Shown: positions 16,595 to 60,578 of the stretch, one piece after another
Layout of the letters: every line of letters starts with the position of its first letter
Numbering within the stretch: position 1 is the stretch's first letter
Origin: Myxococcota bacterium
GTDB lineage: Bacteria; Myxococcota_A; UBA9160; SMWR01
Reading direction: 5' to 3'
Length of the DNA stretch: 64,000 nucleotides
NCBI GenBank assembly: GCA_022447545.1
Contig: JAKVBI010000022.1
Span: forward strand, 30,903 to 94,902
Made by a program: the position numbers and the translations under genes
The notes under the pieces: model-generated
Seen by the model: the letters and a program-made list of their open reading frames with translations, nothing else
Database searches by the model: none
What the model was told of the DNA's origin: nothing

Positions 16595-17797
16595 ATGAGG
16601 GACTCCGGAACGCCGTCTTCGATGCAAACGAGTGAATCTGCGGCGATCGAACTGTCGATCGTGATGCCGTGCCTCAATGAGGCAGACACCCTGGAAGTCT
16701 GCATCGAGAAGGCGCAGAGGTCCCTGCGAGAGCTGGGAATCCAGGGCGAGGTCGTTGTTGCCGACAATGGGAGCGACGATGGTTCGCCCGAGATTGCCGA
16801 ACGCTGTGGCGCGCGGGTCGTCCGAGTCGCAGAGCGAGGATACGGGAGCGCTTTGATGGGAGGCATCGAGGCCTCTCGTGGTCGGTACATCCTCATGGGG
16901 GATGCCGATGACAGCTACGATTTTCTCGAAATCGAGGGGTTCGTCGAGAAATTGCGCCAGGGAAATGACCTGGTTCAGGGGTGTCGGTTGCCGGGCGGCG
17001 GAGGTCGAATCGTCTCGGGAGCGATGCCGGTGCTGCATCGATGGTTCGGGAATCCTCTTCTTACGCTCATGGTGCGGTGGATGTTCGGCGCTCCGATTCA
17101 CGACGCCTATTGTGGACTGAGGGCATTCACGAAGAGCCACTACGATCGCCTGGACCAACGGTGTACCGGGATGGAATTCGCGACCGAGATGATCGTGAAG
17201 TCATCGTTGCTGCGCGCGAAGATTGCAGAAGTTCCCATCACCCTGCATCCCGATGGTCGCAGCTCTCATGGCCCTCATCTGCGAACGTTTCGCGACGGCT
17301 GGCGAACGGTCCGATTCTTCCTGATGTATAGCCCGCGATGGCTCTTCCTTTATCCAGGGCTTCTGTTGATCGCATTGGGCGCGTTGGGCTACGCGGTGGC
17401 GCTCCCTGGACTCGAAATCTTCGGTCTGGGCTTCGATGCACACACATTGCTGTTCGCCAGCCTGTTTGTCCTGATGGGTTATCAGTCCGTTCTGTTCGCG
17501 CTGTTGACCAAGACCTTCGCGGTCACAGAAGGCCTGATGCCCGAGGATCCACGTCTCGATCGGTTTTTCGAGATGGCGAAGTTGGAGGCGGGCCTGGTTG
17601 TGGGCCTGGGGGCGTTGTTCTGCGGAGGGGGCCTGTTGGTTGGTGCAGTGGAGCAGTGGAGAGAATCCGGGTTTGGGTCTCTGGACTACGCGCATACCAT
17701 GCGCTGGGTGATTCCAGGGGTGACTTTGGCTGCACTCGGCTTCCAGACGGTTCTCTGGAGCTTCTACGTGAGCATTCTGGGAATGCGACGCCGATGA
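16595..17797 (+). CDS. GT2 glycosyltransferase, polyprenol-phosphate sugar synthase-like, with C-terminal TM helices
   Basis: LSIVMPCLNE, ADNGSDD, MGDADDSYD, GMEFATEM, then hydrophobic helices. Start could be 16562, 16595 or 16622. Confidence 0.9.
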   Translation: MRDSGTPSSMQTSESAAIELSIVMPCLNEADTLEVCIEKAQRSLRELGIQGEVVVADNGSDDGSPEIAERCGARVVRVAERGYGSALMGGIEASRGRYILMGDADDSYDFLEIEGFVEKLRQGNDLVQGCRLPGGGGRIVSGAMPVLHRWFGNPLLTLMVRWMFGAPIHDAYCGLRAFTKSHYDRLDQRCTGMEFATEMIVKSSLLRAKIAEVPITLHPDGRSSHGPHLRTFRDGWRTVRFFLMYSPRWLFLYPGLLLIALGALGYAVALPGLEIFGLGFDAHTLLFASLFVLMGYQSVLFALLTKTFAVTEGLMPEDPRLDRFFEMAKLEAGLVVGLGALFCGGGLLVGAVEQWRESGFGSLDYAHTMRWVIPGVTLAALGFQTVLWSFYVSILGMRRR

Positions 17798-18447
17798 ATT
17801 GGTTTCGCCGTCTCCACGAGCACCACCATAGGACGCGGCGGACTGAAGCATTGACGCGACATCTGAGCCGATTGATCCCACCGGCATCTCGTCTGTTGGA
17901 TGTGGGTTGCGGCGATGGTTTGTTGACGAGTCAACTGGCGGAGCAGTGCGTTGATGTTGCGGTGACCGGGGTGGATGTTCTGATTCGGAAAGATACTCAC
18001 GTTCCGGTGAGCTCTTTCGACGGCGTGTCTCTGCCGTTTTCAGATGGGTCTTTCGATGTGGTGATGATGGTGGATGTCGTCCATCACAGCGACGACCCTT
18101 TTCGGCTGCTCTCCGAGGCGGCGAGGGTCGCCAGCCGCTGCCTCGTTCTGAAGGACCACACTTTGCAGGGTGCGCTGGCGGCACCGACCCTGGCCTACAT
18201 GGATCGATTCTCCAACCTACGTCACGGCGTCGACGTGCCGTGCAACTACTGGACGCCGGAAACCTGGTCCCGCGCGTTCGGCGACCTGCAATTACACGTC
18301 GAAGAATGGGATTCACGGCTCGCTCTCTATCCATGGGGGTCGAGGTGGCTGTTGGAACGTTCGATGCACTTCGTTGCGCGCCTGGGTGTGCGTACAACGG
18401 CAGCGATGCAACTGCCGGACTCCGAGCCATTTGACGCCGCGCTCTGA
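17794..18447 (+). CDS. Class I SAM-dependent methyltransferase
   Basis: LLDVGCGDG and LPFSDGSFDVV..DVVHH; ATG 17794 overlaps the GT2 stop (ATGA). Confidence 0.88.
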   Translation: MNWFRRLHEHHHRTRRTEALTRHLSRLIPPASRLLDVGCGDGLLTSQLAEQCVDVAVTGVDVLIRKDTHVPVSSFDGVSLPFSDGSFDVVMMVDVVHHSDDPFRLLSEAARVASRCLVLKDHTLQGALAAPTLAYMDRFSNLRHGVDVPCNYWTPETWSRAFGDLQLHVEEWDSRLALYPWGSRWLLERSMHFVARLGVRTTAAMQLPDSEPFDAAL

Positions 18448-19765
18448 GTCGAACACGCTGCTCTGTGTCGCTCTAGGTGTCGCGGCGTGGGTTCGCTGGC
18501 TGGCTCTCGAGCAGTTCGCTGGCGCTCATCTGGCGGGTGATGAGACCTACTATGTGCATCTGGCCGAGGCCATTGCCAACGGAGAGGGGCACGATAGCGC
18601 ATGGCGCCCCCCGCTGTATCCGTTGTTTATGGGGTGGGTGATCTCGCTGTGGCCATCGCTGGATGCTGTGCGTTGGGTACAGATTCTGCTCTCGGTCATC
18701 TCGGTGGGTGTTTTGTTCCGCGTTTGCGACCGTCGGTACGGTGCGCGTCCCGCCTTCGTGACCGGACTGGCTGCGGCACTGTGCCCAGCGCTGGTCCACT
18801 ATGGTCATTTCCTTTGGTCCGAGGCTCTGGCAGCGCCCCTGATGGCGGTCTTCGTCTGGTGTGCGGACCGTTTCGATCGCATGGGGCGTGGGCGCGATGC
18901 CTTTGCGTGCGGAGTGGTTCTGGGGTTGCTGGCTCTCACGAAGGAGGTCTGGGTCTACTTCGGTGCAGTGGTTCTGGTCTGGATGGCCTGGCGCCAGCGA
19001 GCCCGAGCGGCCCGAGCCTCCTCGGTCCTCGCTGCTTGTGCGTTGGGTCTGGCCTGCGTGGTTTTGCCGTGGACGGCCCGAAATTATCTCCAGTCCGGGG
19101 GGTTCGTCCTGATCTCCATGAATCGCTGGTTCCCGATCGCCATGGGGAATTTCTATCCCGACGATGATTGGTATCTGGGTAGCTACAGCCATGATCAGCG
19201 TGAAGCCCTGAAGGATCGAGTCGTGTCCATGTCGGGGCCGGAATACGACGCCATGTGGCAAGAGATCGCACTGGAGTTGATTGCCGATCATCAACCCTGG
19301 TGGGCCTTTCAGAAAAGCATACGGGGCGTAGTTGGGCTCTACAACGTTCGCAGTCAGCCACTTCGATTTCTCGAAGAGGGCTGGGTGAAGCCTTCCCCGT
19401 CGGGTGCGGTGACTCTGGTCGTGACTGAGGTCGGTGGCTACTACGTCTTTATGCTGCTTGGAATTGCGGCATTGTGGTTGGTTCCAGGGGGAGGGCTCAA
19501 ACCACTGGTGGTGCTCGCGGTCCTCTACGTGACGGGCGTGCACCTGATCGCGAATGCGACTCCGCGCTTTCATGTTCCGCTGCTGCCGCTCTTCGCGATC
19601 TACATCGGTCCTCTGATGGCGATGGGGCGCGGGGTGGGCGGACTCCCTCGTTGGCAGAGAGTTGGTGCGGCGATCACCCTGGTCGCTTTCGTCCTGATTC
19701 CGTTGCCGCGTTCCTGGTCGGTGATGGTGGACGTCTGGAATGGAATCGGTGGGGGGACGGGCTGA
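18431..19765 (+). CDS. ArnT/PMT-like GT-C glycosyltransferase
   Basis: AGDETYY, WRPPLYPLF, LWSEALA, LALTKE, VLPWTARNY and PRFHVP; TTG 18431 is the inferred start. Confidence 0.78.
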   Translation: MTPRSESNTLLCVALGVAAWVRWLALEQFAGAHLAGDETYYVHLAEAIANGEGHDSAWRPPLYPLFMGWVISLWPSLDAVRWVQILLSVISVGVLFRVCDRRYGARPAFVTGLAAALCPALVHYGHFLWSEALAAPLMAVFVWCADRFDRMGRGRDAFACGVVLGLLALTKEVWVYFGAVVLVWMAWRQRARAARASSVLAACALGLACVVLPWTARNYLQSGGFVLISMNRWFPIAMGNFYPDDDWYLGSYSHDQREALKDRVVSMSGPEYDAMWQEIALELIADHQPWWAFQKSIRGVVGLYNVRSQPLRFLEEGWVKPSPSGAVTLVVTEVGGYYVFMLLGIAALWLVPGGGLKPLVVLAVLYVTGVHLIANATPRFHVPLLPLFAIYIGPLMAMGRGVGGLPRWQRVGAAITLVAFVLIPLPRSWSVMVDVWNGIGGGTG

Positions 19766-19766
19766 G

Positions 19767-21191
19767 GTGAGCTTTCGTCCTCGTCGGAACTCGAGGAATG
19801 GCCCGGGGCGAATTCTTCGGGGCATGTGCTTCTGCCTGGCTGCGACATTCTGGGTGGGTGTGGGGAGTTGGACTGCGTGTCGACCTTCCGCACCCCCCCG
19901 CCCGGACATCATATTGATCTCCCTCGATACGCTGCGGCGCGATGCAGTCGGTGCTCGAACTTCGGACGGTCGGCCGGTGACTCCAAATCTGGACGCGCTG
20001 GCTACCCGCAGTGTTGAATTCACCCGTGCCTACGCACCTGTGCCTTTTACCCTGACGTCCCACATGACACTCTTTACCGGCTTGAGACCGGCGGTTCACG
20101 GGATGGAGGGGCGAGGGGATCGTCTGAACGCGAAGGCGACGACGCTACCTCAGTTCCTCGAGCGAGCGGGTTACGCAACTCTTGGCGTTTCCACCAACGC
20201 GTGGATGAAGGGCGAGTATGGGTTCGATCGCGGATTCGACCACTACGGAGAAATTCCGCCGGGCGATACGTTTGCCGACCGTGCCATCGATCGCGCACTC
20301 GAGTGGGTGGACGAGAGGCCTCCGGACTCCCCGTTGTTTCTTTTTCTGCATCTGCTCGATGCCCACTCGGATTGGCGGAACCTTCCGTACGATTCGCCCG
20401 ATGAGTACCGCGAGGGCCTGGCCGTTGCCGAGACCACCTTTTGCAGTGACGAGGGGGTGTGTGCCACCCGATTCTTGATCGATTCGGATCGCTCCGACAG
20501 GGAGTTCTCGCAGCGAGAGATGGAGATTCTCCACGAGTTGTACCTACGGGGTGTGGCCTACCTCGACGCTGAACTCGGTCGTTTGTTCGCCGCTCTGGAG
20601 CAGCGAGGGATCTTCGAGCAGGCACTGGTGATCGTGACTTCCGATCACGGGGAGGCGTTTCGAGAACATGGCCGGTTTCTCCACGGACAACCCTACGAGG
20701 AGACCCTTGCCATCCCTCTCCTGATCAAGTTGCCCGATGCGGAAGGGGTGAAACCCCGGAGAGTGTCGGCCCTGGTGTCGAACGAGGATTTGCTGCCCAC
20801 GGTGCTCGAATATCTCGAAGTGACGATCCCTGATGACCTCCAGGGCCGGAGCATGGTTCCTCTCTTGCGGGGGGAAGATGGCGCGCGTGACGTGGTGGTG
20901 GGGGGGGATGCCGTCCATCGCCGTCGTGCCATCGCGGACGATCGGTATCGCCTGGTCGTCGGGTTGGAAGATTCCCGGGTTGAATTGTTCGACCTGAAGC
21001 GGGACCCCCAGGGAGGGGCAGCATCGCGTGTGGAACGGCCGGAGAGGGTGAGGGCACTTCGGTCTCGGCTCGACGAACAAGTTCTCAGAGACACGGAACT
21101 CGCCCGCGAGTACGCGCCGATCCGAGATGGTGAAAGCGTTCTCGACGGTGACGACGAGCGTTGGCTTCGAAGCCTGGGGTACCTGGACTGA
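19767..21191 (+). CDS. Alkaline-phosphatase-superfamily ('sulfatase-like') lipoprotein, Thr-type
   Basis: Lipobox-like WTAC; LDTLRRD, FTLTSHMTLFTG and TSDHGE; C-terminal LRSLGYL. GTG 19767 follows the upstream stop. Confidence 0.85.
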   Translation: MSFRPRRNSRNGPGRILRGMCFCLAATFWVGVGSWTACRPSAPPRPDIILISLDTLRRDAVGARTSDGRPVTPNLDALATRSVEFTRAYAPVPFTLTSHMTLFTGLRPAVHGMEGRGDRLNAKATTLPQFLERAGYATLGVSTNAWMKGEYGFDRGFDHYGEIPPGDTFADRAIDRALEWVDERPPDSPLFLFLHLLDAHSDWRNLPYDSPDEYREGLAVAETTFCSDEGVCATRFLIDSDRSDREFSQREMEILHELYLRGVAYLDAELGRLFAALEQRGIFEQALVIVTSDHGEAFREHGRFLHGQPYEETLAIPLLIKLPDAEGVKPRRVSALVSNEDLLPTVLEYLEVTIPDDLQGRSMVPLLRGEDGARDVVVGGDAVHRRRAIADDRYRLVVGLEDSRVELFDLKRDPQGGAASRVERPERVRALRSRLDEQVLRDTELAREYAPIRDGESVLDGDDERWLRSLGYLD

Positions 21192-35199: not shown

Positions 35200-35464
35200 C
35201 GCACGTGGTTCCCCTGCCAGCGGCTGTGCGTCGGTGGCGCTGGAGTTCGGATCGCGGTCGGCCCGCGATCGTCCGAACCGCAGACTCGGGTCGGGAGCAA
35301 AGGATACCCTGCTCTCAGCAAGCCATCCATCGAAGGTGTTTGGTGCGGACCCGTGAGGATCGGCGACACAAGGGTCTGCGGGGTGGCTGGCTGGCAACGC
35401 GTTCGTGGGTGCGGTCGCATGGGGCGATGGCTCGGACGGAGGCAATGATTTCGATGCGGCGGCG

Positions 35465-46895: not shown

Positions 46896-48638
46896 TCAGA
46901 ATTCGCGTCCCTGGTGGCTTGCGCGCACGCCACACCAGCGCACCTGAATGCCCTCCAGGCCGGTGCTTCGCCACACTCGCAGGTGCCCGGGGTCAATGGG
47001 TTCGAGGCGTACCTGCGGTTCTGGCCCGGGCGAGGTGATCTCCAATACGACGGGTCCCGTAGGTGCTTCGGACGTCACGTCCAGGACACGGCTACGGTCT
47101 TGCGCGGTGTCCCATTGGAGCGTGGGCTGGGAGTCGCCGTGGAACCGGTAGCCATTGTCCGGAAGGCGGAGTTCGAGCAGTTGGCCGGGGCGGGAGTCTT
47201 CGCGACGCAACTTGAGGCAGTCTAGGGTGGCGCTGCCCGGCGCTCGCAACCAACCCGTCGGGTCATGCAGCTCCCGGTAGTGGCTGGACACGTAGCCGCT
47301 GCGCAACCCCGCGGCGGCCCGGGCCGCGGGCAGGGTCACGATGCTGAGGAGGGCTGCCACGGGCACTGCGAGGATCGCGAACCGGGCCCGGAGACTGCGC
47401 GGTGCACGCAGGTGTGCGGCGCCCACGCCCGCCAGGGGCACCAGCAGGGCGAGCAGGGGGAGCCCCATTCGCGCGTTGCCGATGGAGACGAGGGGCCCCA
47501 CGAAGCTGAGGGCGACCAGTCCCAACAGCAGCGTCTGGTCGCTCCGCTGGACCACCGACGACGTGACGCCGAGCGCGGCCAACGTGAGTAGCCCCAGCAG
47601 TCCGAGGCCCAAAGCCGTTGCCACGGCGTAGATCGCGGGTGTCGACAACGCGGGGTAGTAGACGTGGAGAAGGTGTCGGATCAGGAAGTCGTCGGGAGCC
47701 CAGACCTGTCGTGCGCGCAACCACGATCGCTGCAGGAAACGCGCGGGGTCGGCGGCAATGGCCTCCAGGGCCAGGTCGCGCCCGGCGCGGCTGGGGTGCA
47801 CGCCATCGGATTGGGCTCGTTGAGCGATGGCGTTGCGGACGGCCACTTTCGAGGGGAAGTCGGCGTTGAGCTTGAGCAGGTTGTAGCCACTGGCTGTGCT
47901 CAGCACGATGGGTTGACCTTCGGCTCGCAACAAAACCCATTCCCACGGTGCGAGGGTTGCGATTGCCATGGCCAGGGCCAGCACGGCGGGCACCCAGCGG
48001 CGTGTGGCCCCCCCCATCAGCAGCCAACCTGGCACCCAGAGCAGGGGAACCAGTCCAGCGGCGCGGGTGAGACCCGTCAGCCCCAGTGTGGCCCCGCAGG
48101 CGATGGCGGCCAGAATTTGCGTCCGGGTCCCGGATGCATTGCGGGTTGCCAGTGCCAGGGCGATGGACAGGAACAGCAGCAAGATGTAGAGGGTTTCCGA
48201 CCACAGAAGGTGGGCGTAGGCGACAAAGCTTGGATAGAAGGCATGAATGGCTGCGGCCGCGAGGGCGGAACGGCGGTCCGCCAGGCGACGGGTGACCCAG
48301 AAGATGACGGGGGTGGTCAGGACCGAAATCCAGAGCACCGCCCATCGAGCCACGGCCTCGCCGGTCCCGAGGGCGGCCATGACGGTGCCGATCACGGCGG
48401 GGAACAGAGGCGGCCAGGTTCCATCGGAGTAGAGGCGCTGCAGGTCCAGGGGGTCGAGGGCCATGCCGGCGAGGGTGGCCTGCTCGAGATGCGCGACGGC
48501 CTGGGCACGGTGGAAGTACGCCTTTTCGTCGAAGGCCGGGCGCAGCGGAGAGGCCCATTCCAGGGCCAGGGCGCGCACCAGCCAAGAGATCAGCATCAAG
48601 CCGAGCAGCAGGCCCATATCCCGCCGGGATCGGCTCAT
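46896..48638 (-). CDS. ArnT/PMT-like GT-C glycosyltransferase
   Basis: AFDEKAY, WPPLFP, LWSETLY, LTRAAG and LAPWE; ATG 48638 overlaps the upstream stop (ATGA). Confidence 0.72.
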   Translation of the reverse strand: MSRSRRDMGLLLGLMLISWLVRALALEWASPLRPAFDEKAYFHRAQAVAHLEQATLAGMALDPLDLQRLYSDGTWPPLFPAVIGTVMAALGTGEAVARWAVLWISVLTTPVIFWVTRRLADRRSALAAAAIHAFYPSFVAYAHLLWSETLYILLLFLSIALALATRNASGTRTQILAAIACGATLGLTGLTRAAGLVPLLWVPGWLLMGGATRRWVPAVLALAMAIATLAPWEWVLLRAEGQPIVLSTASGYNLLKLNADFPSKVAVRNAIAQRAQSDGVHPSRAGRDLALEAIAADPARFLQRSWLRARQVWAPDDFLIRHLLHVYYPALSTPAIYAVATALGLGLLGLLTLAALGVTSSVVQRSDQTLLLGLVALSFVGPLVSIGNARMGLPLLALLVPLAGVGAAHLRAPRSLRARFAILAVPVAALLSIVTLPAARAAAGLRSGYVSSHYRELHDPTGWLRAPGSATLDCLKLRREDSRPGQLLELRLPDNGYRFHGDSQPTLQWDTAQDRSRVLDVTSEAPTGPVVLEITSPGPEPQVRLEPIDPGHLRVWRSTGLEGIQVRWCGVRASHQGREF

Positions 48639-50062
48639 GGGGCCGTGCTCTCGAGATACCCCAGGGCACGGAGCGCATCGACGGCGTCGTCGGGAAGTTG
48701 CCGGCTCGGGATCGGCTCCGCTCCCTCCCGCCAGCTCGATTCCCAGGCGAGCCACTCGTCTACCCGACGCTGGAAATCGGTCACCCGTTCGGGGGATAGT
48801 TTTGACAGGTCATGTCCCTCGCCAGGGTCCCGGGCGAGGTCGTAGAGTTCCGGCCCGCCCTTGCGGCGCCGATAGTAGGTTTCGCTTCCCCGGCGAACCA
48901 TGTGCTCGTCCCCGTAGGCGCTCGCAAAGGCTTCCCGCGGTGGTTGGGTGTCGTTGCCGGTCAGCAGATCGAGACCCGGGAGTCCTTCCGGAATCCGGGC
49001 CCCGGCCAGTCGGGCAATCGTGGGAAAGAGGTCGATGGAGCGCACCACCCGCGGATCTCGCACACCCTTGGGCGCTGCATGCCCGCTCAGGATCATGGGA
49101 ATGCGCAGGGTCGCATCGTCGAGGCGTCCTCCGCCGTGTCCGACGCGTCCGTGCTCGAAGAAACGCTCTCCGTGATCGGCGGTCACCACGATCAGGGTTT
49201 CATGGGCCCGATCGGTTCGCTCGAGGACCGACGGGAGTCGGCTCAGGGCGGCATCCTGTTGGGCGAGTTCGGCGTCGTAGAGGTCCACGTATCGCTTCGC
49301 CAGTTCGGGTTCGACGCGGCCCGACTCGAGGGCCTGCATCACCCAGCGCCGGACTTTGTGGACGTACCGGGGGTAGTCATCGAGCGGGACAATTGGCTCA
49401 ACGCGATTGAAGGCCCGATAGAAGCGGTAGTCGGGGTCGAAGGTCACGTGGGCGTCGCGGGACATCAGTAGAAAAAAGAACGGCTGGTCGGGCGGGACGG
49501 TCTGGACCCAATTCTCGAACTCATCGACCATGGTCGATGCGTTGAGACTGGGTGAGGCGATGGCGTTGTCGAAGCCCTGGGTCATGCCGAAGTGCTCACT
49601 CACGTGCACGTTGTTGATACGGGCGGCAGTGGCGTAGCCCGCCTCTTGAAGCGTCTCGGCCAGGGTCACGACGCCGTCGGGAAGCACCCGCTTGGGGAGC
49701 AGTTGTCCCCGCATCACCTCCAGCGGGTCGTAGAAATCCGTCATGCCGTGGGCGTTGGGGGGCAGTCCCGTCAGGAGGCTCGCCGTGGCGGGCTTGGTCC
49801 AGTTCGCAGCGCTCACGGCGTTTTCGAAGAACAGGCCCTGACGAGCCAGATCGTCCAGGAAGGGTGTGGTCTCGCGTGGGTAACCGGCGGCCCCCATGTG
49901 CGAGTACCGGAAGGTGCAGAGCACCACCAACAGAATGTCCGGCGGGCGTTCGTGTGCGGGGTCGGGGGTCGGCGGTGGGTCGAGTTCCTGGCCACAACCC
50001 GTCAGCAGCACCAGGATCGCCAGCGCCGGGGCCACGATGATGCGCCAGCGTCGCCCTCTCAC
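48635..50062 (-). CDS. Alkaline-phosphatase-superfamily ('sulfatase-like') lipoprotein, Thr-type
   Basis: Lipobox LTGC; WTKPATASLLTG and TADHGE; C-terminal LRALGYL; GTGA overlap with the LtaS-like gene. Confidence 0.85.
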   Translation of the reverse strand: MRGRRWRIIVAPALAILVLLTGCGQELDPPPTPDPAHERPPDILLVVLCTFRYSHMGAAGYPRETTPFLDDLARQGLFFENAVSAANWTKPATASLLTGLPPNAHGMTDFYDPLEVMRGQLLPKRVLPDGVVTLAETLQEAGYATAARINNVHVSEHFGMTQGFDNAIASPSLNASTMVDEFENWVQTVPPDQPFFFLLMSRDAHVTFDPDYRFYRAFNRVEPIVPLDDYPRYVHKVRRWVMQALESGRVEPELAKRYVDLYDAELAQQDAALSRLPSVLERTDRAHETLIVVTADHGERFFEHGRVGHGGGRLDDATLRIPMILSGHAAPKGVRDPRVVRSIDLFPTIARLAGARIPEGLPGLDLLTGNDTQPPREAFASAYGDEHMVRRGSETYYRRRKGGPELYDLARDPGEGHDLSKLSPERVTDFQRRVDEWLAWESSWREGAEPIPSRQLPDDAVDALRALGYLESTAP

Positions 50063-52332: not shown

Positions 52333-52339
52333 GCGGGAG

Positions 52340-52345
52340 AGTATA
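52340..52345 (-). promoter_or_regulatory. -10 element TATACT, 7 nt before in-frame GTG 52332 (leaderless-type)
   Basis: Minus strand reads TATACT-ctcccgc-GTG, in frame with the LtaS-like ORF. Confidence 0.55.
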
Positions 52346-52444
52346 CGTGGCGCGGTCGGGCAGCACGGGGTCGGTCGGGACGCCGGGCGAGGGGCGGGTA
52401 TCCTCGCTGCTGGGCTCCAGCGGGCTGGGGCAGGGGAGACGGGC

Positions 52445-53998
52445 TTGAAGGACAAAGGGCCGCCGGAAGTCGATGCCGACCCGGTGCTGGAACTCGAACG
52501 GCGGCGCGCCGAACTGGCAGGCGATTTTCCGCGCATCGCCCTGTGCCTGTTCCAGTGGGGTGGGTCTGAGGTCCTGGGGACCATGCTGGCACGTATTCCC
52601 CCGGCTGTGGTGGCGTGTCTGCAGGAGGTGGTCGTGGTGCAAGAAGCCGCCACGAGCCTCTCGGCCGAAGCTTCCGAGGCGATTCATGCCAGGGGTCGCG
52701 CTCTCGGGTTGAAGTTGTCGATTCTCCGCCAGCCGCGCGACCACTCCTTCGGAGGTGCGCGAAAGGCGGCCTTCGAGTTTGCGACGGGGCGTGATTTCGA
52801 CCACGTGATCACCATGCGGGGTGACGGGCTTCATCCACCTGAGGCCCTGCCCGGGCTTTTGAACGCCGCGCTGTCCGGCCCCCCGAGCTTGTGCGTCGCG
52901 GCGCGCGTTCACCGATTGCTGCACCGTCCACCGGGGTTGCCCCTGGCCCGGATGGTCCTCCATCGCGTGGCAACTGGCCTCCAGAATCGGCTACTGGGAC
53001 TCGGTCTCGAGGACTACCACTCGGGCTATCGCATCTATCCCGTGCACGCGCTGCGTCGGATCCCGTTCCAATTGGACGCGAACGAACGTGTCTTCGACAC
53101 GCAGATGGTGATCCAATGCCGCGCTCTCGGCCTGCCCATCAAGGAGGTCGATGTTCCTCCGAGCTGGCAGGAATACGCGAGCGGTGCACGGGGGCTGAGA
53201 GAGGTCCTGCTGGCTTGTGCTGAGGCCATCGACTACCGCCTCCACCAGCTGCACGTCACGCGTCGCGGACGCTACTTCGTGGACCGGGGGGTGCACTACA
53301 CCCTCAAGCAGAGCCCGACGGGCTCGCATATGCAGATCGTGGACGCCATCGAACCCGGCACTCGGGTACTCGATCTCGGATGTTCCCAGGGGCTGCTGGC
53401 CAGGCCTCTTCTCGAAAAGGGCGTCCGCGTCGTCGGGGTGGATAGTGCTCCCCCGGAAACCGCCGTGTTGGCCGACGAACTCGAGGCCTACCACGCCCGA
53501 GACCTCGAGGAGCCTCTGGATCTTCCGCTGGCACGGGAGTTCGACTACGTGGTGATCTCGGACGTGATCGAGCACCTGGGCAATCGCGTCCCCCTGCTTC
53601 GCGAAGCGCGGAAATATCTCAAAGCCGGGGGCCGATTGGTGATCTCGACCCCCAACGTGGCGCTTTGGTTCTACCGCCTCTCGTTGCTGGTGGGTCGCTT
53701 CGAGTACGGGGCCCGTGGAGTGCTCGACGAGACCCATGTCCACTTGTTCACCCGCGCAACCTTCCGGCGGGAGGTGGAGAAGGCGGGGTTCCATGTTCTG
53801 AGGGAGCGGCGCACGGCTCTGCCGTTCGAGGTCGTCTTCGAGTCCACTGGCCGCAGTCGCCTGATTCGAAACGCGGCAGACGTCTATCACGTCCTCGCTC
53901 GGGCCTGGCCCACGATGTTCGCCTATCAGATCATCTTCGAAGCCGAGATCACGACCCTCGACGAAGACTCCATCGAGCACCCTTCCGAAGCGGGTTGA
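52445..53998 (+). CDS. Bifunctional GT2 glycosyltransferase / class I SAM methyltransferase
   Basis: GT2 half with MRGDGLHPPE, DYHSGYRIY and VFDTQMVIQ; methyltransferase half with VLDLGCSQG, DVIEHL and DETHVHLFT. GGAG SD before TTG 52445. Confidence 0.8.
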   Translation: MKDKGPPEVDADPVLELERRRAELAGDFPRIALCLFQWGGSEVLGTMLARIPPAVVACLQEVVVVQEAATSLSAEASEAIHARGRALGLKLSILRQPRDHSFGGARKAAFEFATGRDFDHVITMRGDGLHPPEALPGLLNAALSGPPSLCVAARVHRLLHRPPGLPLARMVLHRVATGLQNRLLGLGLEDYHSGYRIYPVHALRRIPFQLDANERVFDTQMVIQCRALGLPIKEVDVPPSWQEYASGARGLREVLLACAEAIDYRLHQLHVTRRGRYFVDRGVHYTLKQSPTGSHMQIVDAIEPGTRVLDLGCSQGLLARPLLEKGVRVVGVDSAPPETAVLADELEAYHARDLEEPLDLPLAREFDYVVISDVIEHLGNRVPLLREARKYLKAGGRLVISTPNVALWFYRLSLLVGRFEYGARGVLDETHVHLFTRATFRREVEKAGFHVLRERRTALPFEVVFESTGRSRLIRNAADVYHVLARAWPTMFAYQIIFEAEITTLDEDSIEHPSEAG

Positions 53999-54040: not shown

Positions 54041-54901
54041 TCAGAGGCGTTTGAGGAATCGGCTGATGATTCCGTCGGAGAGTTTCGTGTGCCTGCGGAT
54101 GAAGGAGTAGAGGCGCAGGGCGGTTCGGTCTGCGGCCACGAGAAGGCGCTCGCGCAGGGACGATCCCGGAAGCGATCGGTAGTCGGTGGAGGTCAAGGGT
54201 TGAGCGCTCGCTTCCTGACGGAAGTAGTAGAGGGCGATGGATTTCCGCTCCACAGACTCGGGGCAGGCCAGAGGGGCCGGATGGCCGTGGAACGAATGGG
54301 CGGTGGTGTGGAACAGCACGCAGCGGTTGAACAGGGGCGGGATCTTGGTGACACAGTGTTCCAGGGTGGAGTCCCAAAACTCGAGGTCTCCGTTCCACTT
54401 TGGCTGCCAATCTTCGTTGAAGTACAGCAGGAGGTTGATCTGCCGGCTCCAGTCATGATGTTGGGTGTGGGAAAGAAAGTCTGCGTGAACGTTGAGGAAA
54501 CCACCCCGGGGCACTTTGTGGAGGCCGGCGCCGTCGAGCTCCGGATCGGCCAACAGTTCGTCGAGTCCGGTCAGGCGTTGAACGAACTCGACGAAGGGGC
54601 GCGAAATGAGCGCGTCCACGAGGGCACGTGTTCGCGGTGGCATACCATCGAGGTGGGTCAGTGCCGTCTTGTCCTCGTTGTAGTGTCGATAGTGGTCCCA
54701 GCCATCGGAAGCCTGATCGAACTCCCGCGCGACCTCACGGGCAAATTCCCCGGGTAGAAAGTCATCCAAGACGACATGAGGGAACGGCAGCGCTTGGCTG
54801 AAGTCGTCTCGGTGACGATTCGCCAGTGTGTCGAGTTCGCGGTAGTTGAGGACGTCTTCGGCCAGCGGTTCGGCTCCCGCGTTCGTTCCGGCCCGGTTCA
54901 A
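54041..54901 (-). CDS. 2OG-Fe(II) oxygenase (prolyl-hydroxylase-like)
   Basis: GAGLH, NVHADF, HSFHGHP and RKSIALYY. Confidence 0.85.
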   Translation of the reverse strand: MNRAGTNAGAEPLAEDVLNYRELDTLANRHRDDFSQALPFPHVVLDDFLPGEFAREVAREFDQASDGWDHYRHYNEDKTALTHLDGMPPRTRALVDALISRPFVEFVQRLTGLDELLADPELDGAGLHKVPRGGFLNVHADFLSHTQHHDWSRQINLLLYFNEDWQPKWNGDLEFWDSTLEHCVTKIPPLFNRCVLFHTTAHSFHGHPAPLACPESVERKSIALYYFRQEASAQPLTSTDYRSLPGSSLRERLLVAADRTALRLYSFIRRHTKLSDGIISRFLKRL

Positions 54902-55012: not shown

Positions 55013-56032
55013 TCAAAGAGCAGGGCGCCGCCCGCGGGCGAGTAGCGCGAGTCCGGCGAGGCCCCAGACGAGGTTTGCTGCGAGGATCGAGAGGGAGAGT
55101 GACAGTGCCACCTCCGGTCGCATTCCGGCGATTCCGAACAGCACGACGTACAGCGATTCCCGCACTCCCGTTCCGCCCAGACTGATGGGCAGAAGGCTGA
55201 CCGCCATCACGAAGGGCACGATGACCGGAAACCAGAAGGCCGGCACGTGGGAGTCGAGAGGCATCGCGAGGGCCCAGACTCCGAGCACGGGAATGGCCTG
55301 GCACGCCAGGCTCAGAGCGAAGACCTCCCCCACGAGTCGGGGCCGGCTGGAGAGATGGGCCAGTGCCGTCAGCACGCGTTGGGTCTCCTGGCCCAGGCGC
55401 GGCGAGAGGCGACCGACTCCCTCGACCGCAGCCCGCGCCAGACGGCGGCCCAGGGGGTGGAAGCAGCCGATGGCGACTGCAAAAAGAGTCGCGCTGGCTG
55501 CGACGAGAGCCCAGGCCCATTGCGTTCCTGTTTCGCTGGCCGGGATGAAGGGGGCAGCCAGTAGACCCACGGAGCAAAGCGCGGCCAGGCCGAGCAGACG
55601 TTCAAGCACCAGGCTTCCGAAGACCTCTGCGCCCCGGCCGCTGTCGCGGCGGGCGTCGGCGAACCGGTAGGCGTCGCCCACCACCGCCGAGGGCAGCGCC
55701 AGGCCCATGAAGTTCGCGATCAGGTATGCCCGGAACACAACGGGCCACCGCCCGGCCAGATCCGCAGCCTGAAGGAGCACCGTGAATCGCACAGCGGCCA
55801 GCGCCGTTGCGATCAGGTATGCGCTGCTGCCCAGTGCGAACCACGCCAAGGACGTGGGCAGGGGCGCCGACCAGGCGCCGAGCAGGGAGGGCAGCAAAGC
55901 TCGCCCGTCGCCCGGAAGCGCCAGACGGATGGCGAGACCGAGGAATCCGACGCTGATGGCCAGGCGCGCAACGGTTTTGACGAGGGTCCGACGTCGATTC
56001 GCCGCTCCTCGATCGGTGTTGGACTCGCTCAA
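55013..56032 (-). CDS. Lysylphosphatidylglycerol-synthase TM-domain (YbhN-like) putative flippase
   Basis: About 8 TMs; LPSAVVGDAYR, ERLLG and PISLGGTGVRE. Confidence 0.82.
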   Translation of the reverse strand: MSESNTDRGAANRRRTLVKTVARLAISVGFLGLAIRLALPGDGRALLPSLLGAWSAPLPTSLAWFALGSSAYLIATALAAVRFTVLLQAADLAGRWPVVFRAYLIANFMGLALPSAVVGDAYRFADARRDSGRGAEVFGSLVLERLLGLAALCSVGLLAAPFIPASETGTQWAWALVAASATLFAVAIGCFHPLGRRLARAAVEGVGRLSPRLGQETQRVLTALAHLSSRPRLVGEVFALSLACQAIPVLGVWALAMPLDSHVPAFWFPVIVPFVMAVSLLPISLGGTGVRESLYVVLFGIAGMRPEVALSLSLSILAANLVWGLAGLALLARGRRPAL

Positions 56033-56041
56033 GTCGTGCCG

Positions 56042-56956
56042 TCAGGCGGGCGGCTGGCGCTTGGAGTCACGCCGCTGCGCTTTGAGGTGTTCCTGCACTG
56101 CCCGGAGCCCGAAGTCGGGATTGAGCAGGTGCGCCAACATGGAGAACGCACGTGAGAATTTCATGCAGGTCCGGTAGGCGCCCACGCGAACTCTGGCGGG
56201 GATTGAGGTGCGGGCATGAGTCCGCCAGTGGGTGCTGTGATCACCGGCGAAATCGGCTGTCGGAGCGCTGGTGTAGTAGTAGAGCGCGATGGATCGGCGC
56301 GGTGCATTGCCAACATTCGGGTTGACCCCGTGTACGGAATGATCGCTGGTGTTGAAGATCGCGCAGGTTCCCCATTCGGGCGTGACTTCGACGCTCGGAT
56401 GGGGATCGTCCTGGCGATGGAGGGTGAGTTGTCCCCCGGCTCCAGGGGTCCAGTCGGGGTTGAGGAAGACCAGTGCGTTGACTCGTCGGTACAGGCCCAG
56501 CGCCTCGTGAACGTGGAAGTCCGTGTGGGGTCTCAGGTGGCCGCCAGGACCGGTGACGTGAAGCCCGCCGCCCTCCAGGTGGGGATCCGGAAGCAATTTG
56601 GGGATGCCGGTGACTCGCTCGAGGAAGCGCAGAAACGGTGCGGCGCACAATTCCTCGATGAGTTCCCGCCAGGGGCTTGGGATGACGCGAAGGTCCCGGC
56701 AGGTGGCCTTGCCGGTCTGATAGCCGTCGGAGAAGCGCTGCCAGTGGGGCCAGGACGCGTCGGGGAACTCGCGTGCGCGGGTGGGGTCGAGGCGGATGGC
56801 GTCGCGGAGGACGAGGTGGGGAAACGGTTCGGCGGACTGGTAGCGCTCGGCGAGTGTCGGGACTTGGGACTCGAGGGCCTCGAGTGCCAGGAACTCCGGG
56901 CGTGCTGGGCTCCCGGGGGAAGGGGGCTCGGTTTCGTCTCCGCCGGCCATCGCCAC
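56042..56956 (-). CDS. 2OG-Fe(II) oxygenase (prolyl-hydroxylase-like), paralogue
   Basis: GGGLH, RPHTDF, HSVHGV and RRSIALYYY. Confidence 0.85.
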   Translation of the reverse strand: MAMAGGDETEPPSPGSPARPEFLALEALESQVPTLAERYQSAEPFPHLVLRDAIRLDPTRAREFPDASWPHWQRFSDGYQTGKATCRDLRVIPSPWRELIEELCAAPFLRFLERVTGIPKLLPDPHLEGGGLHVTGPGGHLRPHTDFHVHEALGLYRRVNALVFLNPDWTPGAGGQLTLHRQDDPHPSVEVTPEWGTCAIFNTSDHSVHGVNPNVGNAPRRSIALYYYTSAPTADFAGDHSTHWRTHARTSIPARVRVGAYRTCMKFSRAFSMLAHLLNPDFGLRAVQEHLKAQRRDSKRQPPA

Positions 56957-56962
56957 GGGAGG

Positions 56963-57049: not shown

Positions 57050-57055
57050 CAACGC

Positions 57056-58834
57056 GTGTCGCGCGTACACGGAGGCGAGCCCCCCGCACTCCTGCGACCG
57101 GTCGTGTTCGGCCCGCTGTTGCTCCTGTCCGCCCTCGGGCTGAGTGCGTGGATGCACGACTATCGCCTGCCGGCCAGCGATGAAGGTGCGCTGCTGACCC
57201 AGGCGTCGAAGATCCTGCGCGGCGCCATCTACTACCGCGACCTTGACGCCTACCCGTTTCCAGGGGCCACCTACGCGCTGGCCGCGGCCATGCGTGTGTT
57301 CGGCCTCCATCTCGACGTGGCGCGTGGGCTGGCGTCGGGGGTGTTCTGCACGATCGTGCTGTCGGTCTACGCCATGGCTCTTCGTCTGGTCGGGCCCTCC
57401 CGGGCGGCGGTGATCGGCATCTTGCTGTTGTCGTTCAAGTTTCTCGCCTGGCCCTCGCTGACGGGTTTCTTCTACTGGGATTTTTCGTTCGGCTCCGCCT
57501 GCGTCGCCGTGGCGTTGTTGCTCCGTCAGCGCGAGGCTTCGCAGCCGTGGGGTCTGGTGGCCGCGGGGATGGCCTGCGGCGTGGCGTTCGCGTCGAAGCA
57601 GAGTCTCGGGATCTATCTGGCCGCTGCGGCCGTGGCGACACTCGCGTTTCCGAATTGGTTGCGTGGTGGACCGGTTCGTTCGGGGAGTGCAGGGCGGCGG
57701 GATGCGGCGCTGTTCTGTGGGGGGATGGCGCTGCTGCTGGTGCCCATGCTCGGCTACTTCGCATGGCACGGTGTGCTGTGGCAGATGCTCTACAGCGGAC
57801 TCGTGAGGCCCTTTGTCTCGTATCTGCCGACCAGTGGTCTGTCCTTTTCCACGATGCTGCGCTGGTGGGAGTTGGGTTCCTTCCAGGGGGTGCCGGGGTT
57901 GCCGTATCACATCGAACCCGTCTGGACTCTCCTGATGGACGAGCGTCTCCCGTCGCGGGGCTGGTACCCGGTCTACTGGTTTCTTTCCGAGGCCTTCAGT
58001 CGCGCCCTTTATTCGAGTGTCGTGATTGCCTTCGTGTGGGCCGGCATGCGCTGGTTTCGGGCGGTACGCGCGGGTCGTCTGGAGGAAGAGGGAGACCTGC
58101 CGACGTTTGCGCTGCTGAGCTTTGCGGTCTTTCTCTCGGCGCTGCCTCGGGCCGATTATCCCCACGTGATCAGCGTGTACCCACTGGTTTTGGTCTTGTT
58201 GTTCGCACTTTGGGGAGTGCGGTTTCGAGAGGGTCGCGGTGGGCGGGGGCGGACCTGGTGGCTGCGCCTGGAGGCGGGGTGCGCGGTGGCGCTGTTGGTT
58301 GCAAGCATCGGGCTTTCGGCTCGGCAGTTCTCCTTCATGACCCACACCCTCCACTTCGAGACGGCCGACATGCGAGTGGCTCCGCGCTACGCCTGGGTCG
58401 ATTCGGTGGTTCGCTACGTCGATGAAGTGGTTCCAGAAGACGGACGTCTGCTCGTATTCGGTCACGAGGCGTTCTACTACTTCTTGACTCAGCGCTTCTA
58501 CCCGTGGCCCTTTGCGCAGCTCTATCCCGGTCAGGCGGGGAGCGACAGTGGGGTGAGTTTGGGCAAATTGTTGGAGGAGGACCCTCCGAACCTCGTGCTT
58601 CGCGGCATGATTCGGTTCCCCGGAATGCCCTATCTGCCCGATTACGCCCCCGTCCTCTACAGCGTTCTGGAGGCGAATTACACACGGGACAAACGGGTCT
58701 TCGAGCGCTTTCCTCCCGAGTTCGGGCGACCCCCGCGGCAGAAGGCGTTGACGGTGCTCAAGCCGCGGCGCTTCCTGCAGGAAGCGTTGGATGCCCGGCA
58801 GCGGTCTGGCCCTGGGCAAAGCGGGGTACACTGA
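57056..58834 (+). CDS. ArnT/PMT-like GT-C glycosyltransferase
   Basis: ASDEG..YYRDL..YPFPG, FASKQSLG, PRADYPH and C-terminal periplasmic domain. Confidence 0.72.
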   Translation: MSRVHGGEPPALLRPVVFGPLLLLSALGLSAWMHDYRLPASDEGALLTQASKILRGAIYYRDLDAYPFPGATYALAAAMRVFGLHLDVARGLASGVFCTIVLSVYAMALRLVGPSRAAVIGILLLSFKFLAWPSLTGFFYWDFSFGSACVAVALLLRQREASQPWGLVAAGMACGVAFASKQSLGIYLAAAAVATLAFPNWLRGGPVRSGSAGRRDAALFCGGMALLLVPMLGYFAWHGVLWQMLYSGLVRPFVSYLPTSGLSFSTMLRWWELGSFQGVPGLPYHIEPVWTLLMDERLPSRGWYPVYWFLSEAFSRALYSSVVIAFVWAGMRWFRAVRAGRLEEEGDLPTFALLSFAVFLSALPRADYPHVISVYPLVLVLLFALWGVRFREGRGGRGRTWWLRLEAGCAVALLVASIGLSARQFSFMTHTLHFETADMRVAPRYAWVDSVVRYVDEVVPEDGRLLVFGHEAFYYFLTQRFYPWPFAQLYPGQAGSDSGVSLGKLLEEDPPNLVLRGMIRFPGMPYLPDYAPVLYSVLEANYTRDKRVFERFPPEFGRPPRQKALTVLKPRRFLQEALDARQRSGPGQSGVH

Positions 58835-59001: not shown

Positions 59002-59883
59002 GTGAGCGAGTCGGGACACCTTCTGCTGTCCATCGTGATTCCGGCCCACAACGAGGCGGAGAACCTGCCTCCCACCGTGGAGGCCCTGACCCGCACCCTG
59101 GGGGCGGAGTCGATCCCCTACGAGGTCATCCTCGTCAATGACAACAGCACCGATGAGACGGGTCGGGTGGCTGAAGGGCTCGCAGTTCGGGATCCCGCGG
59201 TCCGGGTGATCACGAGGACCAAGCTGGGGGGCTTCGGTCGAGCGGTCCGCAGTGGGCTCGAAGCCTTTCGCGGGGATGCCGTCGCCGTGGTGATGGCCGA
59301 TAGCTCGGACGACCCCAAGGATGTGGTCCGCTATTACCGCAAGATCGAAGAGGGCTACGACTGTGTGTTCGGCTCACGCTTTCGAGGTGAGAGCGAGGTG
59401 GTCAATTATCCGCGGGGTAAGTTGATCGTGAATCGCATCGTGAACCGGATGATCCAACTGTTGTTCTGGTGCCGGTTCAACGATCTGACCAATGCGTTCA
59501 AGATCTATCGGCGGGAGGTGGTGCTGCAATGCGGACCGTATTCGTCCAGCCACTTCAATCTCACCATCGAGATGTCCCTGTCGGCGCTGATCCGCCGCTA
59601 CCACATTGCTGAGATCCCCATTCGCTGGTACGGAAGGACCTGGGGGGCTTCGAACCTGAGTATTGTCGCCATGGGGCGACGCTATCTCAGTACTTTGTTG
59701 AAGGTGTTCTTCGAGCGAGTTCTGATTTCCGATGACATTCTCGAGGAGCGCCTGGCCGAACGTGCCCTCACGGCAGATCGTCTGGCTCAGTTTGAAACGC
59801 GTCTCACGTCCGTGGAGAGCGACCTGGTCGGTTTGCGCGAATCAGTTCCTCCGGGGGATCCCGAGTACGGGGACAGTCGGTGA
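59002..59883 (+). CDS. GT2 glycosyltransferase, DPM1/polyprenol-phosphate sugar synthase-like
   Basis: LSIVIPAHNE, VNDNSTD, MADSSDDP, FGSRF and NDLTNAFK; GTG 59002 is the inferred start. Confidence 0.9.
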   Translation: MSESGHLLLSIVIPAHNEAENLPPTVEALTRTLGAESIPYEVILVNDNSTDETGRVAEGLAVRDPAVRVITRTKLGGFGRAVRSGLEAFRGDAVAVVMADSSDDPKDVVRYYRKIEEGYDCVFGSRFRGESEVVNYPRGKLIVNRIVNRMIQLLFWCRFNDLTNAFKIYRREVVLQCGPYSSSHFNLTIEMSLSALIRRYHIAEIPIRWYGRTWGASNLSIVAMGRRYLSTLLKVFFERVLISDDILEERLAERALTADRLAQFETRLTSVESDLVGLRESVPPGDPEYGDSR

Positions 59884-60578
59884 GCGAACCGGTCGACGCG
59901 AGAGAGCGGGTCGATGCCATCTACGCGCAGCGCTTCCCGGACGAAGATCCTGGCCACGCCCGATGGCGTCGGGACCTCTGGAAGGTGCTGGTGGATGACT
60001 TCTTTTCGCATTGGATCCCCGCAGATGCTTGTGTGCTCGACTATGGGTGCGGGACGGGCGAATTCATTAATGCAGTGGAGGCCCGCCGACGCATCGGGGT
60101 GGATTTGCGCTCGGTGTCGCGTGGCGCACTGGACAAGGAGGTGGAGTTCTCAGAGTCCAGGGGGGTGTCGATGCCGGGGGTGGGAGATGGCGAGGCCGAT
60201 GTGGTCTTCTGTTCGAATCTGCTCGAACACCTTCCCGACCGGGAAACCGTGACGAGTCTGTTGCGGGAGTTCTTCCGGGTCTTGGGACCCGAGGGGCGGC
60301 TCCTGCTGTTGGGGCCGAATCTCCGCTATACGCGAGAGGCCTATTGGGATTTTTTTGATCACATCCTGCCGTTTACCCACCATACGGTGGCCGAGGCACT
60401 CGCGACCGCGGATCTCGAGGTCGAAGAATCGATCCCGCGCTTTCTGCCTTATACCACTGTCGGTGCGCGCCAGACCCCGCTTCCCCTGGTGCGCCTCTAT
60501 CTCAAACTGCCATTGGCGTGGAGGGTGATGGGGGCGCAGTTCTTCTTCGTGGCGCGGCGGGCTCCGGTCCGGGGTTGA
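59880..60578 (+). CDS. Class I SAM-dependent methyltransferase
   Basis: VLDYGCGTG, SNLLEHL and YWDFFDH; GTGA overlap with the GT2 stop. Confidence 0.88.
   Translation: MSEPVDARERVDAIYAQRFPDEDPGHARWRRDLWKVLVDDFFSHWIPADACVLDYGCGTGEFINAVEARRRIGVDLRSVSRGALDKEVEFSESRGVSMPGVGDGEADVVFCSNLLEHLPDRETVTSLLREFFRVLGPEGRLLLLGPNLRYTREAYWDFFDHILPFTHHTVAEALATADLEVEESIPRFLPYTTVGARQTPLPLVRLYLKLPLAWRVMGAQFFFVARRAPVRG

Follow-up and report, generated by a model that had tools for sequence, protein, structure and literature searches.

The window analysed here is a 64,000-nucleotide stretch from a Myxococcota bacterium (GenBank assembly GCA_022447545.1, contig JAKVBI010000022.1, positions 30,903 to 94,902 of the forward strand), and the subject of this study is a set of three units within it, each of which joins a family 2 glycosyltransferase (GT2) to an S-adenosylmethionine (SAM)-dependent methyltransferase. 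The gene set consisted of approximately 46 codon-usage gene calls, essentially all of which were searched against Pfam. The G+C content of the window was 60–67%. GT2 or SAM-methyltransferase domains were found in five reading frames only, which together make up exactly three units, namely, two adjacent gene pairs (pair 1 and pair 3) and one fused gene. Every GT2 in the window is paired with a methyltransferase, and every methyltransferase with a GT2. The five genes are listed below with their Pfam matches.

16595..17797, + strand: GT2_1, 400 aa, DPMS/ArnC/AglJ-like GT2 with 3-4 C-terminal transmembrane (TM) helices; Glycos_transf_2, 2.9e-22
17794..18447, + strand: MT_1, 217 aa, class I SAM methyltransferase from a separate family of ~200-aa proteins; Methyltransf_11/23, 1e-14
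52445..53998, + strand: fusion, 517 aa, with Glycos_transf_2 at residues 61-205 (1.1e-9) and Methyltransf_23 at residues 299-452 (9e-22); GT2-like half at ~residues 29-240 (nt 52529-53164), methyltransferase half at ~residues 293-505 (nt 53321-53959)
59002..59883, + strand: GT2_3, 293 aa, soluble DPMS/ArnC-like GT2 without a TM segment and with a helical C-terminal tail; Glycos_transf_2, 9.7e-30
59880..60578, + strand: MT_3, 232 aa, class I SAM methyltransferase; Methyltransf_23, 5e-17

The stop codon of GT2_1 and the start codon of MT_1 share the bases ATGA at 17794-17797, and those of GT2_3 and MT_3 share GTGA at 59880-59883. Both overlaps had been reported in a first-pass annotation of this DNA and were read again in the sequence; its statement that 52445..53998 encodes both domains in one chain was likewise borne out, as Pfam placed a GT2 and a methyltransferase within the 517 aa. 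The fusion starts with TTG at 52445, which is preceded by a GGGGAGA ribosome-binding site. In a public gene call, MT_1 starts at a later TTG and has 198 aa; ATG 17794 was taken as the true start because the N-terminal residues thereby added, H8 and R16, are conserved across 27 homologs. If gene order and strand were random, the chance of two downstream same-strand GT2-methyltransferase adjacencies would be ~2/(44x43x4), or roughly 3e-4. The conservation of each unit in other genomes, described below, is far stronger evidence than this figure.

For all three GT2s, the closest solved structures were Pyrococcus DPMS, ArnC, and GtrB, and other GT2 structures scored worse, in agreement with the earlier assignment of these proteins to the DPM1/ArnC/GtrB type. 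GT2_1 matched DPMS (5mlz) at 3e-10, ArnC at 3e-10, and GtrB at 1e-7, and its alignment with ArnC runs on into the TM region. Its best NCBIfam match was the haloarchaeal AglJ (1.3e-32, below the curated cutoff), and its orthologs bear the Pfam domain GT2_TM_C (PF26629). GT2_3 matched DPMS at 4.6e-17, ArnC at 6.7e-15, and GtrB at 4e-13. The donor motifs are kept in both proteins; NE, DNGSDD, and DAD align in GT2_1, and NE, NDNSTDET, and the second Asp of DxD align in GT2_3. GT2_1 and GT2_3 are likely to be lipid-carrier sugar synthases.

All three methyltransferases matched Pfam Methyltransf_11/23/25, and they carry the class I motif I as LDVGCGDG (MT_1), LDYGCGTG (MT_3), and LDLGCSQG (fusion), followed in each by GVD, and these residues are conserved in the respective families. 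Neither a signal peptide nor a TM segment was predicted in them. Judging from these features, the methyltransferases look active and cytoplasmic. Since they have no signal peptide or TM segment and SAM is cytoplasmic, any methylation would have to take place in the cytoplasm before flipping, as the first-pass annotation had proposed.

In an all-against-all BLAST comparison, GT2_1 and GT2_3 showed 28% identity, the fused GT2 half gave no match to either of them, and the three methyltransferases aligned with each other around the SAM motif only. The matches of the fused methyltransferase to MT_1 and MT_3 spanned 34-101 residues, with E-values of 5e-4 to 2e-5. Moreover, the best PDB relatives differed, being RebM-like and generic enzymes for MT_1, a sugar 3-C-methyltransferase (weak) for MT_3, and 3cc8 for the fused domain. 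A recent duplication of one pair was rejected on the basis of the low GT2 identity and the restricted methyltransferase matches. Since the GT2s and the methyltransferases are divergent and their best solved relatives differ, the window holds three independent solutions to the same GT2-methyltransferase pairing. The earlier description of the set as a "Rosetta stone" pattern therefore stands in one part, as one unit is indeed fused, and fails in another, as the BLAST results show that neither split pair is orthologous to the fused domains.

Conservation of the three units

In pair 1, MT_1 belongs to a family found in Planctomycetes, Verrucomicrobia, Acidobacteria, and cyanobacteria, the alignment of which has invariant DVGCGDG, DVxHH, KDH, MDxxxN, and NYW motifs. 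Among 30 metagenome loci that hold an MT_1 family gene, 23 have a GT2_1 ortholog (E-values down to 1e-185) beside it. In three of the other seven the contig ends too early, and the adjacency amounts to 23 of the 27 loci with enough flanking DNA; the strand and order of the window are shared by 20. The 4-nt overlap between the two genes occurs again in L165 and L167 (the L numbers denote homologous loci from other genomes), where the GT2 also bears GT2_TM_C. The MT_1 homolog of some genomes is directly followed by a second class I methyltransferase gene of a different kind (L166, 8001-9289; L167, 8001-9292).

In pair 3, MT_3 has 1948 homologs at E<=1e-8. A GT2 lies directly 5' of the MT_3 ortholog in L001, L008, L168, L169, and L170, which are five of the six other loci with MT_3 orthologs of at least 55% identity. 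More distant homologs occur in a different setting. In L162 (Pseudomonas sp. R3.Fl, 1692-8675) and L164 (1717-8663), an MT_3 homolog with 46-49% identity ends a gene cluster that encodes a UbiA+HAD phosphoribosyltransferase-like protein, DprE1-like (3e-101) and DprE2-like (2e-51) proteins, a short-chain dehydrogenase/reductase (SDR), an amine-oxidase-family protein, and, beside the MT_3 homolog, GtrA. The cluster resembles a polyprenyl-phosphate pentofuranose pathway with an extra methylation step. Pathways of the DprA/DprE1/DprE2 type assemble the pentose on polyprenyl phosphate, without a nucleotide sugar (PMC11127046). Because the MT_3 homolog closes a DprE1/DprE2 cluster, where the pentose would be built on the lipid, these loci provide an independent clue that favours the lipid as the level of methylation.

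The fusion has more than 470 full-length homolog clusters with 56-71% identity, and in a species-level genome collection it was found in Myxococcota metagenome-assembled genomes (MAGs) at 55-71% identity. The best Myxococcota MAG match, L001, is syntenic with the window at 46.9-61.6 kb. A deep clade of fusions with 30-35% identity comes mainly from Acidimicrobiales and Ilumatobacteraceae, and the architecture thus spans two phyla (Myxococcota; Acidimicrobiia). In a library of 1.84 billion representative proteins, the fused methyltransferase domain had 116 relatives at E<=1e-30; among its best 150 relatives, 53 had the length of the fusion and 71 were stand-alone, and the subfamily hence occurs in both forms. 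Of 80 loci with the fusion gene, 63 encode a large polytopic protein (at least 350 aa and at least 6 TM segments) no more than 1.5 kb away from it. Ten of the neighbours were sampled, and a YfhO-type GT-C protein, a weak GT87/Alg6-like protein, and a membrane protein with tetratricopeptide repeats (TPR) were among them; five had no known family.

On comparing the fusion family profile with the PDB, 3cc8 was matched at 1e-34, DPMS at 5e-17, and ArnC at 1e-9; WbdD (1e-5, methyltransferase domain) was among the weaker matches. The closest solved relative of the methyltransferase half is BCE_1332 (3cc8), a structural-genomics methyltransferase from Bacillus cereus, and the likeness includes the C-terminal W..R...G.F.Y..G.LD.TH.R.FT extension. 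However, BCE_1332 is a stand-alone, uncharacterised protein of 230 aa without a GT2 half. An AlphaFold (AF2) model of the fusion had a mean pLDDT of 69.6, with values of 80-93 in the GT2 half, and contained one long helix (residues 248-274) after the GT-A domain.

When the fused GT2 half was aligned with DPMS, the donor side was found to be eroded. The beta1 motif IIPTYNE reads IALCLFQ in the window fusion, the nucleotide-binding stretch VVVDDDSPDRT reads VVVVQEAATSLS, and DAD retains its second Asp alone (D127, with G128). The nucleotide-binding stretch has no conserved acidic residue across 22 close homologs, and the Myxococcota fusion clade lacks both NE and DDxSxD. The relatives from Acidimicrobiia and Thermoanaerobaculia keep AYNAE, DDxSxDxT, and HGDGQYAPE. 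Ten fusion-length representatives were compared; clear Pfam GT2 matches were obtained for the six that are more distant, and the four closest gave none. The acceptor-side residues D190, Y191, and R196 are invariant in the close fusion clade. Because the donor motifs NE and DDxSxD are lost, the window fusion is probably not a canonical synthase. It appears more likely that the fused GT2 half binds a polyprenyl-phosphate sugar and feeds it to its own methyltransferase than that it serves as a third synthase. Since the fusion and pair 3 co-localise in several genomes, the fusion may act on the product of GT2_3. The expectation of three different methylated donors, which had been raised earlier for this locus, is doubtful in view of the lost motifs, as the fused GT2 half may not be a synthase at all.

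Neighbouring genes and membrane proteins

The pairs are accompanied by membrane-protein and sugar-modification genes, of which the following lie next to pair 1 or pair 3 or are linked to them in other genomes.

18431..19765, + strand: GTC_b, PMT_2-type GT-C membrane glycosyltransferase, 8 TM; Pfam PMT_2, 1.4e-14
12231..13832, − strand: unk3, 533-aa polytopic membrane protein, candidate third partner of pair 1
57056..58834, + strand: GTC_e, weak PMT_2-like polytopic protein, 7 TM; PMT_2, 5.5e-5, just under the gathering score
60586..62843, − strand: epi1 and epi2, SDR sugar-nucleotide dehydratase/epimerase family, convergent on MT_3; Pfam Epimerase/GDP_Man_Dehyd

GTC_b is located immediately 3' of MT_1 with a 17-nt overlap, and PMT_2 proteins adjoin both pair 1 and pair 3 in the window. 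Homologs of unk3 directly follow the GT2_1-MT_1 pair elsewhere, where they adjoin MT_1 orthologs in L090, L097, L098, L100, L106, and L109 (twice), and the family has an invariant N-terminal HDEFSY motif. A GT-C identity was considered for unk3 and not confirmed, as six family members gave no Pfam match, a PDB search gave none either, and hhalign against the GTC_b family reached a probability of 41% only (E 2.8e-4). The end of unk3 is overlapped by 4 nt by an exosortase-like gene (11635-12234, − strand).

GTC_e, which has orthologs in L001, L002, L013, and L039, lies directly 5' of GT2_3. The nearest NCBIfam models of epi1 and epi2 were dTDP-glucose 4,6-dehydratase and GalE, both far under cutoff. 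Both SDR genes are kept in L008, L168, and L169, and in L001 epi1 lies within the fetched DNA; epi1 and epi2 are a conserved part of the pair 3 module. A fusion-type gene is located just 5' of this module in L008 and L168 and 5-7 kb away from it in the window and in L001.

The window encodes 14 polytopic membrane proteins. PMT_2 matches were obtained in five of them, and only that of GTC_b was strong. Three TPR-fused proteins have an N-terminal membrane domain in common with GTC_a. In total, eight membrane proteins have sequence support as GT-C proteins, and the six other polytopic proteins are unassigned; a Pfam search at relaxed thresholds on the latter and on the N-termini of the TPR proteins gave nothing useful. 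With respect to the GT-C set assumed in the first-pass annotation, GT-C-type or large polytopic neighbours are frequent, and 8 of the 14 polytopic proteins have such support. Two further proteins are of interest for the region around the fusion.

46896..48755, − strand: GTC_d, weak PMT_2-like protein, 8 TM; PMT_2, 2.3e-5; in the L001-syntenic block, with an L001 ortholog at 2e-151
55013..56032, − strand: candidate flippase, 7 TM; LPG_synthase_TM, 2.2e-25; TIGR00374 flippase-like, 6e-8, below cutoff

Synteny with L001 includes the candidate flippase gene, which sits between the fusion and pair 3. This gene is flanked by genes of two paralogous prolyl-hydroxylase-like 2-oxoglutarate (2OG)-Fe(II) oxygenases (54041-54901 and 56042-56956; 34% identity). 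The trio of oxygenase and LPG_synthase_TM genes is syntenic in L001, and 5 of 14 loci have an oxygenase gene close to the fusion. These enzymes may hydroxylate a protein acceptor ahead of its glycosylation.

Four membrane proteins with C-terminal TPR repeats are encoded at 25417-27555, 29023-31230, 31329-33257, and 44899-46845. TPR3 and TPR4 show 47% identity, and the N-terminal membrane domains of three of the TPR proteins resemble the PMT_2-like GTC_a. The combination of a membrane domain with C-terminal TPR repeats recalls the architecture of the eukaryotic TMTC protein O-mannosyltransferases. Four proteins assigned to the "sulfatase family" have lipoprotein-like N-termini, with a Cys after a hydrophobic stretch (19740-21191, 35405-36937, 36944-38425, and 48635-50062), and of 14 Myxococcota-type loci, 10 have a homolog no more than 10 kb from the fusion gene. 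None of the four has the C/S-x-P-x-R formylglycine motif, and three have DT(L/F)R after the first strand. A true sulfatase function is doubtful because this motif is missing, and the proteins look like transferases or hydrolases of the alkaline-phosphatase superfamily.

The G+C content is 65-68% at ~38-58 kb and 60-64% on the flanks. The high-GC block includes the fusion, GTC_c, GTC_d, GTC_e, and a membrane LtaS/OpgB-like protein (50059-52653) and largely coincides with the L001-syntenic part; pairs 1 and 3 lie outside it. Two paralogous MBOAT acyltransferases are encoded at 13995-15389 and 62983-63999, the second of which runs past the end of the window; they share 48% identity over 339 residues, and an unassigned secreted protein (15390-16478) follows the first. 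The presence of two MBOATs suggests O-acylation of an extracytoplasmic glycan. A multihaem c-type cytochrome (5822-7822, 666 aa) and an Omp85-family outer-membrane protein (7971-9350) are also encoded among the glycosylation genes, and the latter confirms a diderm host.

Proposed route, alternatives and known systems

As described above, GT2s of the DPMS/ArnC/GtrB type are joined to cytoplasmic class I SAM methyltransferases in three separate units, and the proposal that these units make methylated lipid-linked sugar donors has, in our judgment, about an even chance of being correct. The domain identities, the overlaps between genes, the conservation of the units, and their gene neighbourhoods are observed, and from them the acceptor lipid, the methyl acceptor, the sequence of steps, and the parts played by the flippase and the GT-C proteins are inferred. 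In this route, polyprenyl phosphate would be the acceptor lipid, and the methyl group could be placed on an O, C, or N atom. On the inner side of the cytoplasmic membrane, polyprenyl phosphate would receive a sugar that the GT2 takes from a nucleotide sugar. The partner methyltransferase would then methylate the sugar while it is still in the cytoplasm, most probably on the lipid carrier; for pair 3, the alternative would be methylation of a nucleotide sugar that the neighbouring SDR enzymes, epi1 and epi2, produce. The lipid-linked sugar would be carried across the membrane by a flippase, possibly the LPG_synthase_TM-type protein (55013-56032). Finally, GT-C-type glycosyltransferases, several of them TPR-fused, would pass the sugar to periplasmic proteins or polysaccharide.

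If this route is correct, a donor-tailoring step would be added to the synthase/flippase/GT-C scheme, in three independent versions and in several phyla. It would provide a route for O-methyl sugars into glycans whose assembly takes place outside the cytoplasm, in the absence of SAM, and it would offer candidate enzymes for the methylation of lipid-linked glycans, as in Halobacterium. Moreover, the eroded GT2 half of the fusion would represent a glycosyltransferase fold reused as a substrate-binding module. A stronger form of the proposal is that methylation of the polyprenyl-phosphate monosaccharide is obligatory and enzyme-coupled and marks the donor for flipping or GT-C recognition, as a bacterial counterpart of the methylation of the Halobacterium dolichol-phosphate glycan, with the fused GT2 half of Myxococcota being a catalytically dead "reader" of the lipid-sugar; this form is considered unlikely.

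Several observations weigh against the proposal that the units make methylated lipid-linked donors. The GT2s resemble DPMS and ArnC moderately (E 1e-10 to 1e-17), the NCBIfam equivalog matches are all far under their cutoffs, and GT2_3 and the fusion have no TM segment. On comparing the modelled GT2 half of the fusion with solved structures using Foldseek, DPMS, GtrB, ArnC, and the soluble GT-A enzyme GpgS were found to score alike, with TM-scores of 0.52-0.58. The fold was accordingly dropped as a test of lipid-sugar synthase identity, and the sequence profile was relied on for this half because the fold comparison does not discriminate. With respect to the later steps, no Pfam match to GtrA_DPMS_TM, SMR, or a MATE flippase was obtained in the window, and the pair 3 module of L169 has no GT-C protein within 7 kb. 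Further weight comes from the evidence for other substrates, which is considered below.

The methyltransferases could act earlier, on the nucleotide sugar, as the first-pass annotation had also allowed, and the GT2 would then load an already C-, N-, or O-methylated sugar on the lipid. The C- and N-methylation of deoxysugars normally takes place on the NDP-sugar. The PDB matches of MT_3 are all weak, and the best of them is a nucleotide-sugar (TDP-sugar) 3-C-methyltransferase at 2e-4; together with the two adjacent dehydratase-like SDRs, which are nearest to dTDP-glucose 4,6-dehydratase and conserved in the pair 3 module, this match fits methylation at the nucleotide-sugar level, as might the DegT aminotransferase and GMC oxidoreductase genes 3 kb 3' of pair 1. 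However, MT_3, with its 232 aa, does not have the additional domains found at both termini of the sugar C-methyltransferases of ~410 aa, the fused methyltransferase is tied to a GT2 half without nucleotide-binding motifs, and GT2-methyltransferase pairs of the pair 1 family often have no sugar-nucleotide genes nearby. Moreover, an MT_3 homolog belongs to a DprA/DprE1/DprE2 cluster, that is, to a pathway without a nucleotide-sugar intermediate (PMC11127046). Methylation at the nucleotide-sugar level is thus regarded as rather unlikely. It is also conceivable that the units handle a lipid-linked oligosaccharide or polysaccharide, or another lipid, at the cytoplasmic face, with the GT2 attaching a terminal sugar that the methyltransferase then caps; such chain termination or decoration would be in the manner of WbdD and WsaE, and no monosaccharide donor for GT-C proteins would be supplied. 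WsaE is a characterised methyltransferase-GT2 fusion that caps an S-layer glycan by 2-O-methylation (PMC2943079), and WbdD is among the weaker PDB matches of the fused methyltransferase domain (1e-5). In the distant cyanobacterial locus L166, and there only, the MT_1 homolog adjoins not a GT2 but Wzm/Wzt with a Wzt_C domain, which is the context of a chain-terminating methylation, and the C-terminal tail of GT2_3 is predicted to be helical and coiled-coil-like.

Against a capping role, Pfam found no priming phosphoglycosyltransferase, GT4, Wzx/Wzy, or Wzm/Wzt in the window and no match to ABC2_membrane, ABC_tran, Wzt_C, or a further, cytoplasmic glycosyltransferase, which argues against cytoplasmic repeat-unit assembly and a chain-terminator role here. 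The GT2s are nearest to monosaccharide-lipid synthases and not to polymerising GT2s, the order of GT2 followed by methyltransferase is the reverse of that in WsaE, and polytopic GT-C-like proteins dominate the neighbourhood. Capping is judged to be decidedly unlikely. A very unlikely case is that the substrate is not a carbohydrate at all, being a polyprenyl lipid, phospholipid, protein, or small molecule, or that the role is structural or regulatory, with the adjacency reflecting complex formation or co-regulation. The family assignments are generic (Methyltransf_11/23, UbiG-like, MetW-like), the fused domain also matches UbiG and phospholipid/phosphoethanolamine N-methyltransferases, and no substrate-defining residues are known for these methyltransferase families. 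However, three unrelated methyltransferase subfamilies are each paired with a GT2 of one functional class, and one of them is also paired with a mechanistically different lipid-sugar pathway; this pattern points to the products of the synthases as the common substrate class. A purely structural role is opposed by the conserved SAM-binding motifs of all three methyltransferases. The production of methylated lipid-linked donors, with the SAM methyltransferase as the new part in a known scheme of periplasmic glycosylation, remains the best reading of these sequences.

No description of a module of this kind was found in the papers searched on combined GT2, methyltransferase, and GT-C modules and on mycobacterial methylthioxylose genes. 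Mycobacterial methylthioxylose was dropped as a precedent because its donor is derived from methylthioadenosine without a methyltransferase step (PMC11127046). WsaE and WbdD resemble the window units in that a class I SAM methyltransferase is joined to glycan-assembly domains and a lipid-linked glycan is handled at the cytoplasmic face (PMC2943079). WsaE, however, has the order methyltransferase-GT-GT, polymerises a rhamnan, and works with Wzm/Wzt (PMC2943079), whereas the window fusion has a DPMS-type GT2 followed by a methyltransferase, and the window contains neither an ABC transporter nor polymerising glycosyltransferases.

A precedent is found in haloarchaea. In Haloferax volcanii, AglP methylates a dolichol-phosphate-linked glycan, and aglJ, a GT2 gene, lies at one end of the agl cluster that holds the genes for pentasaccharide assembly (PMC3871713). 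In Halobacterium salinarum, a transient 3-O-methylglucose occurs on the dolichol-phosphate glycan, for which the enzyme is unidentified (PMC8674786). In these archaea, as in the route proposed for the window, SAM-dependent methylation acts on a sugar bound to its polyprenol monophosphate carrier. Unlike the haloarchaeal systems, in which an oligosaccharide is methylated and transferred by AglB, the window units would supply a monosaccharide donor for GT-C proteins.

The closest parallel in gene content is provided by the three-component periplasmic systems GtrB/GtrA/Gtr*, CsbB/GtcA/YfhO, ArnC/ArnEF/ArnT, and DPMS/PMT, including the pentofuranose version (PMC11127046). In the window, a DPMS/GtrB/ArnC-like GT2 likewise stands beside GT-C-type proteins, YfhO- and PMT_2-type neighbours likewise occur around the units or their homologs, and the implied logic would be the same, in that a polyprenyl-phosphate monosaccharide is synthesised on the inside for use on the outside. 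The window differs from these systems in that two of its three GT2s have no TM anchor and that it has an LPG_synthase_TM flippase-like protein only, in place of a GtrA/SMR flippase. Moreover, the descriptions found of three-component systems include no dedicated methyltransferase, whereas the GT2s of the window each have a SAM methyltransferase joined to them by translational coupling or by fusion.

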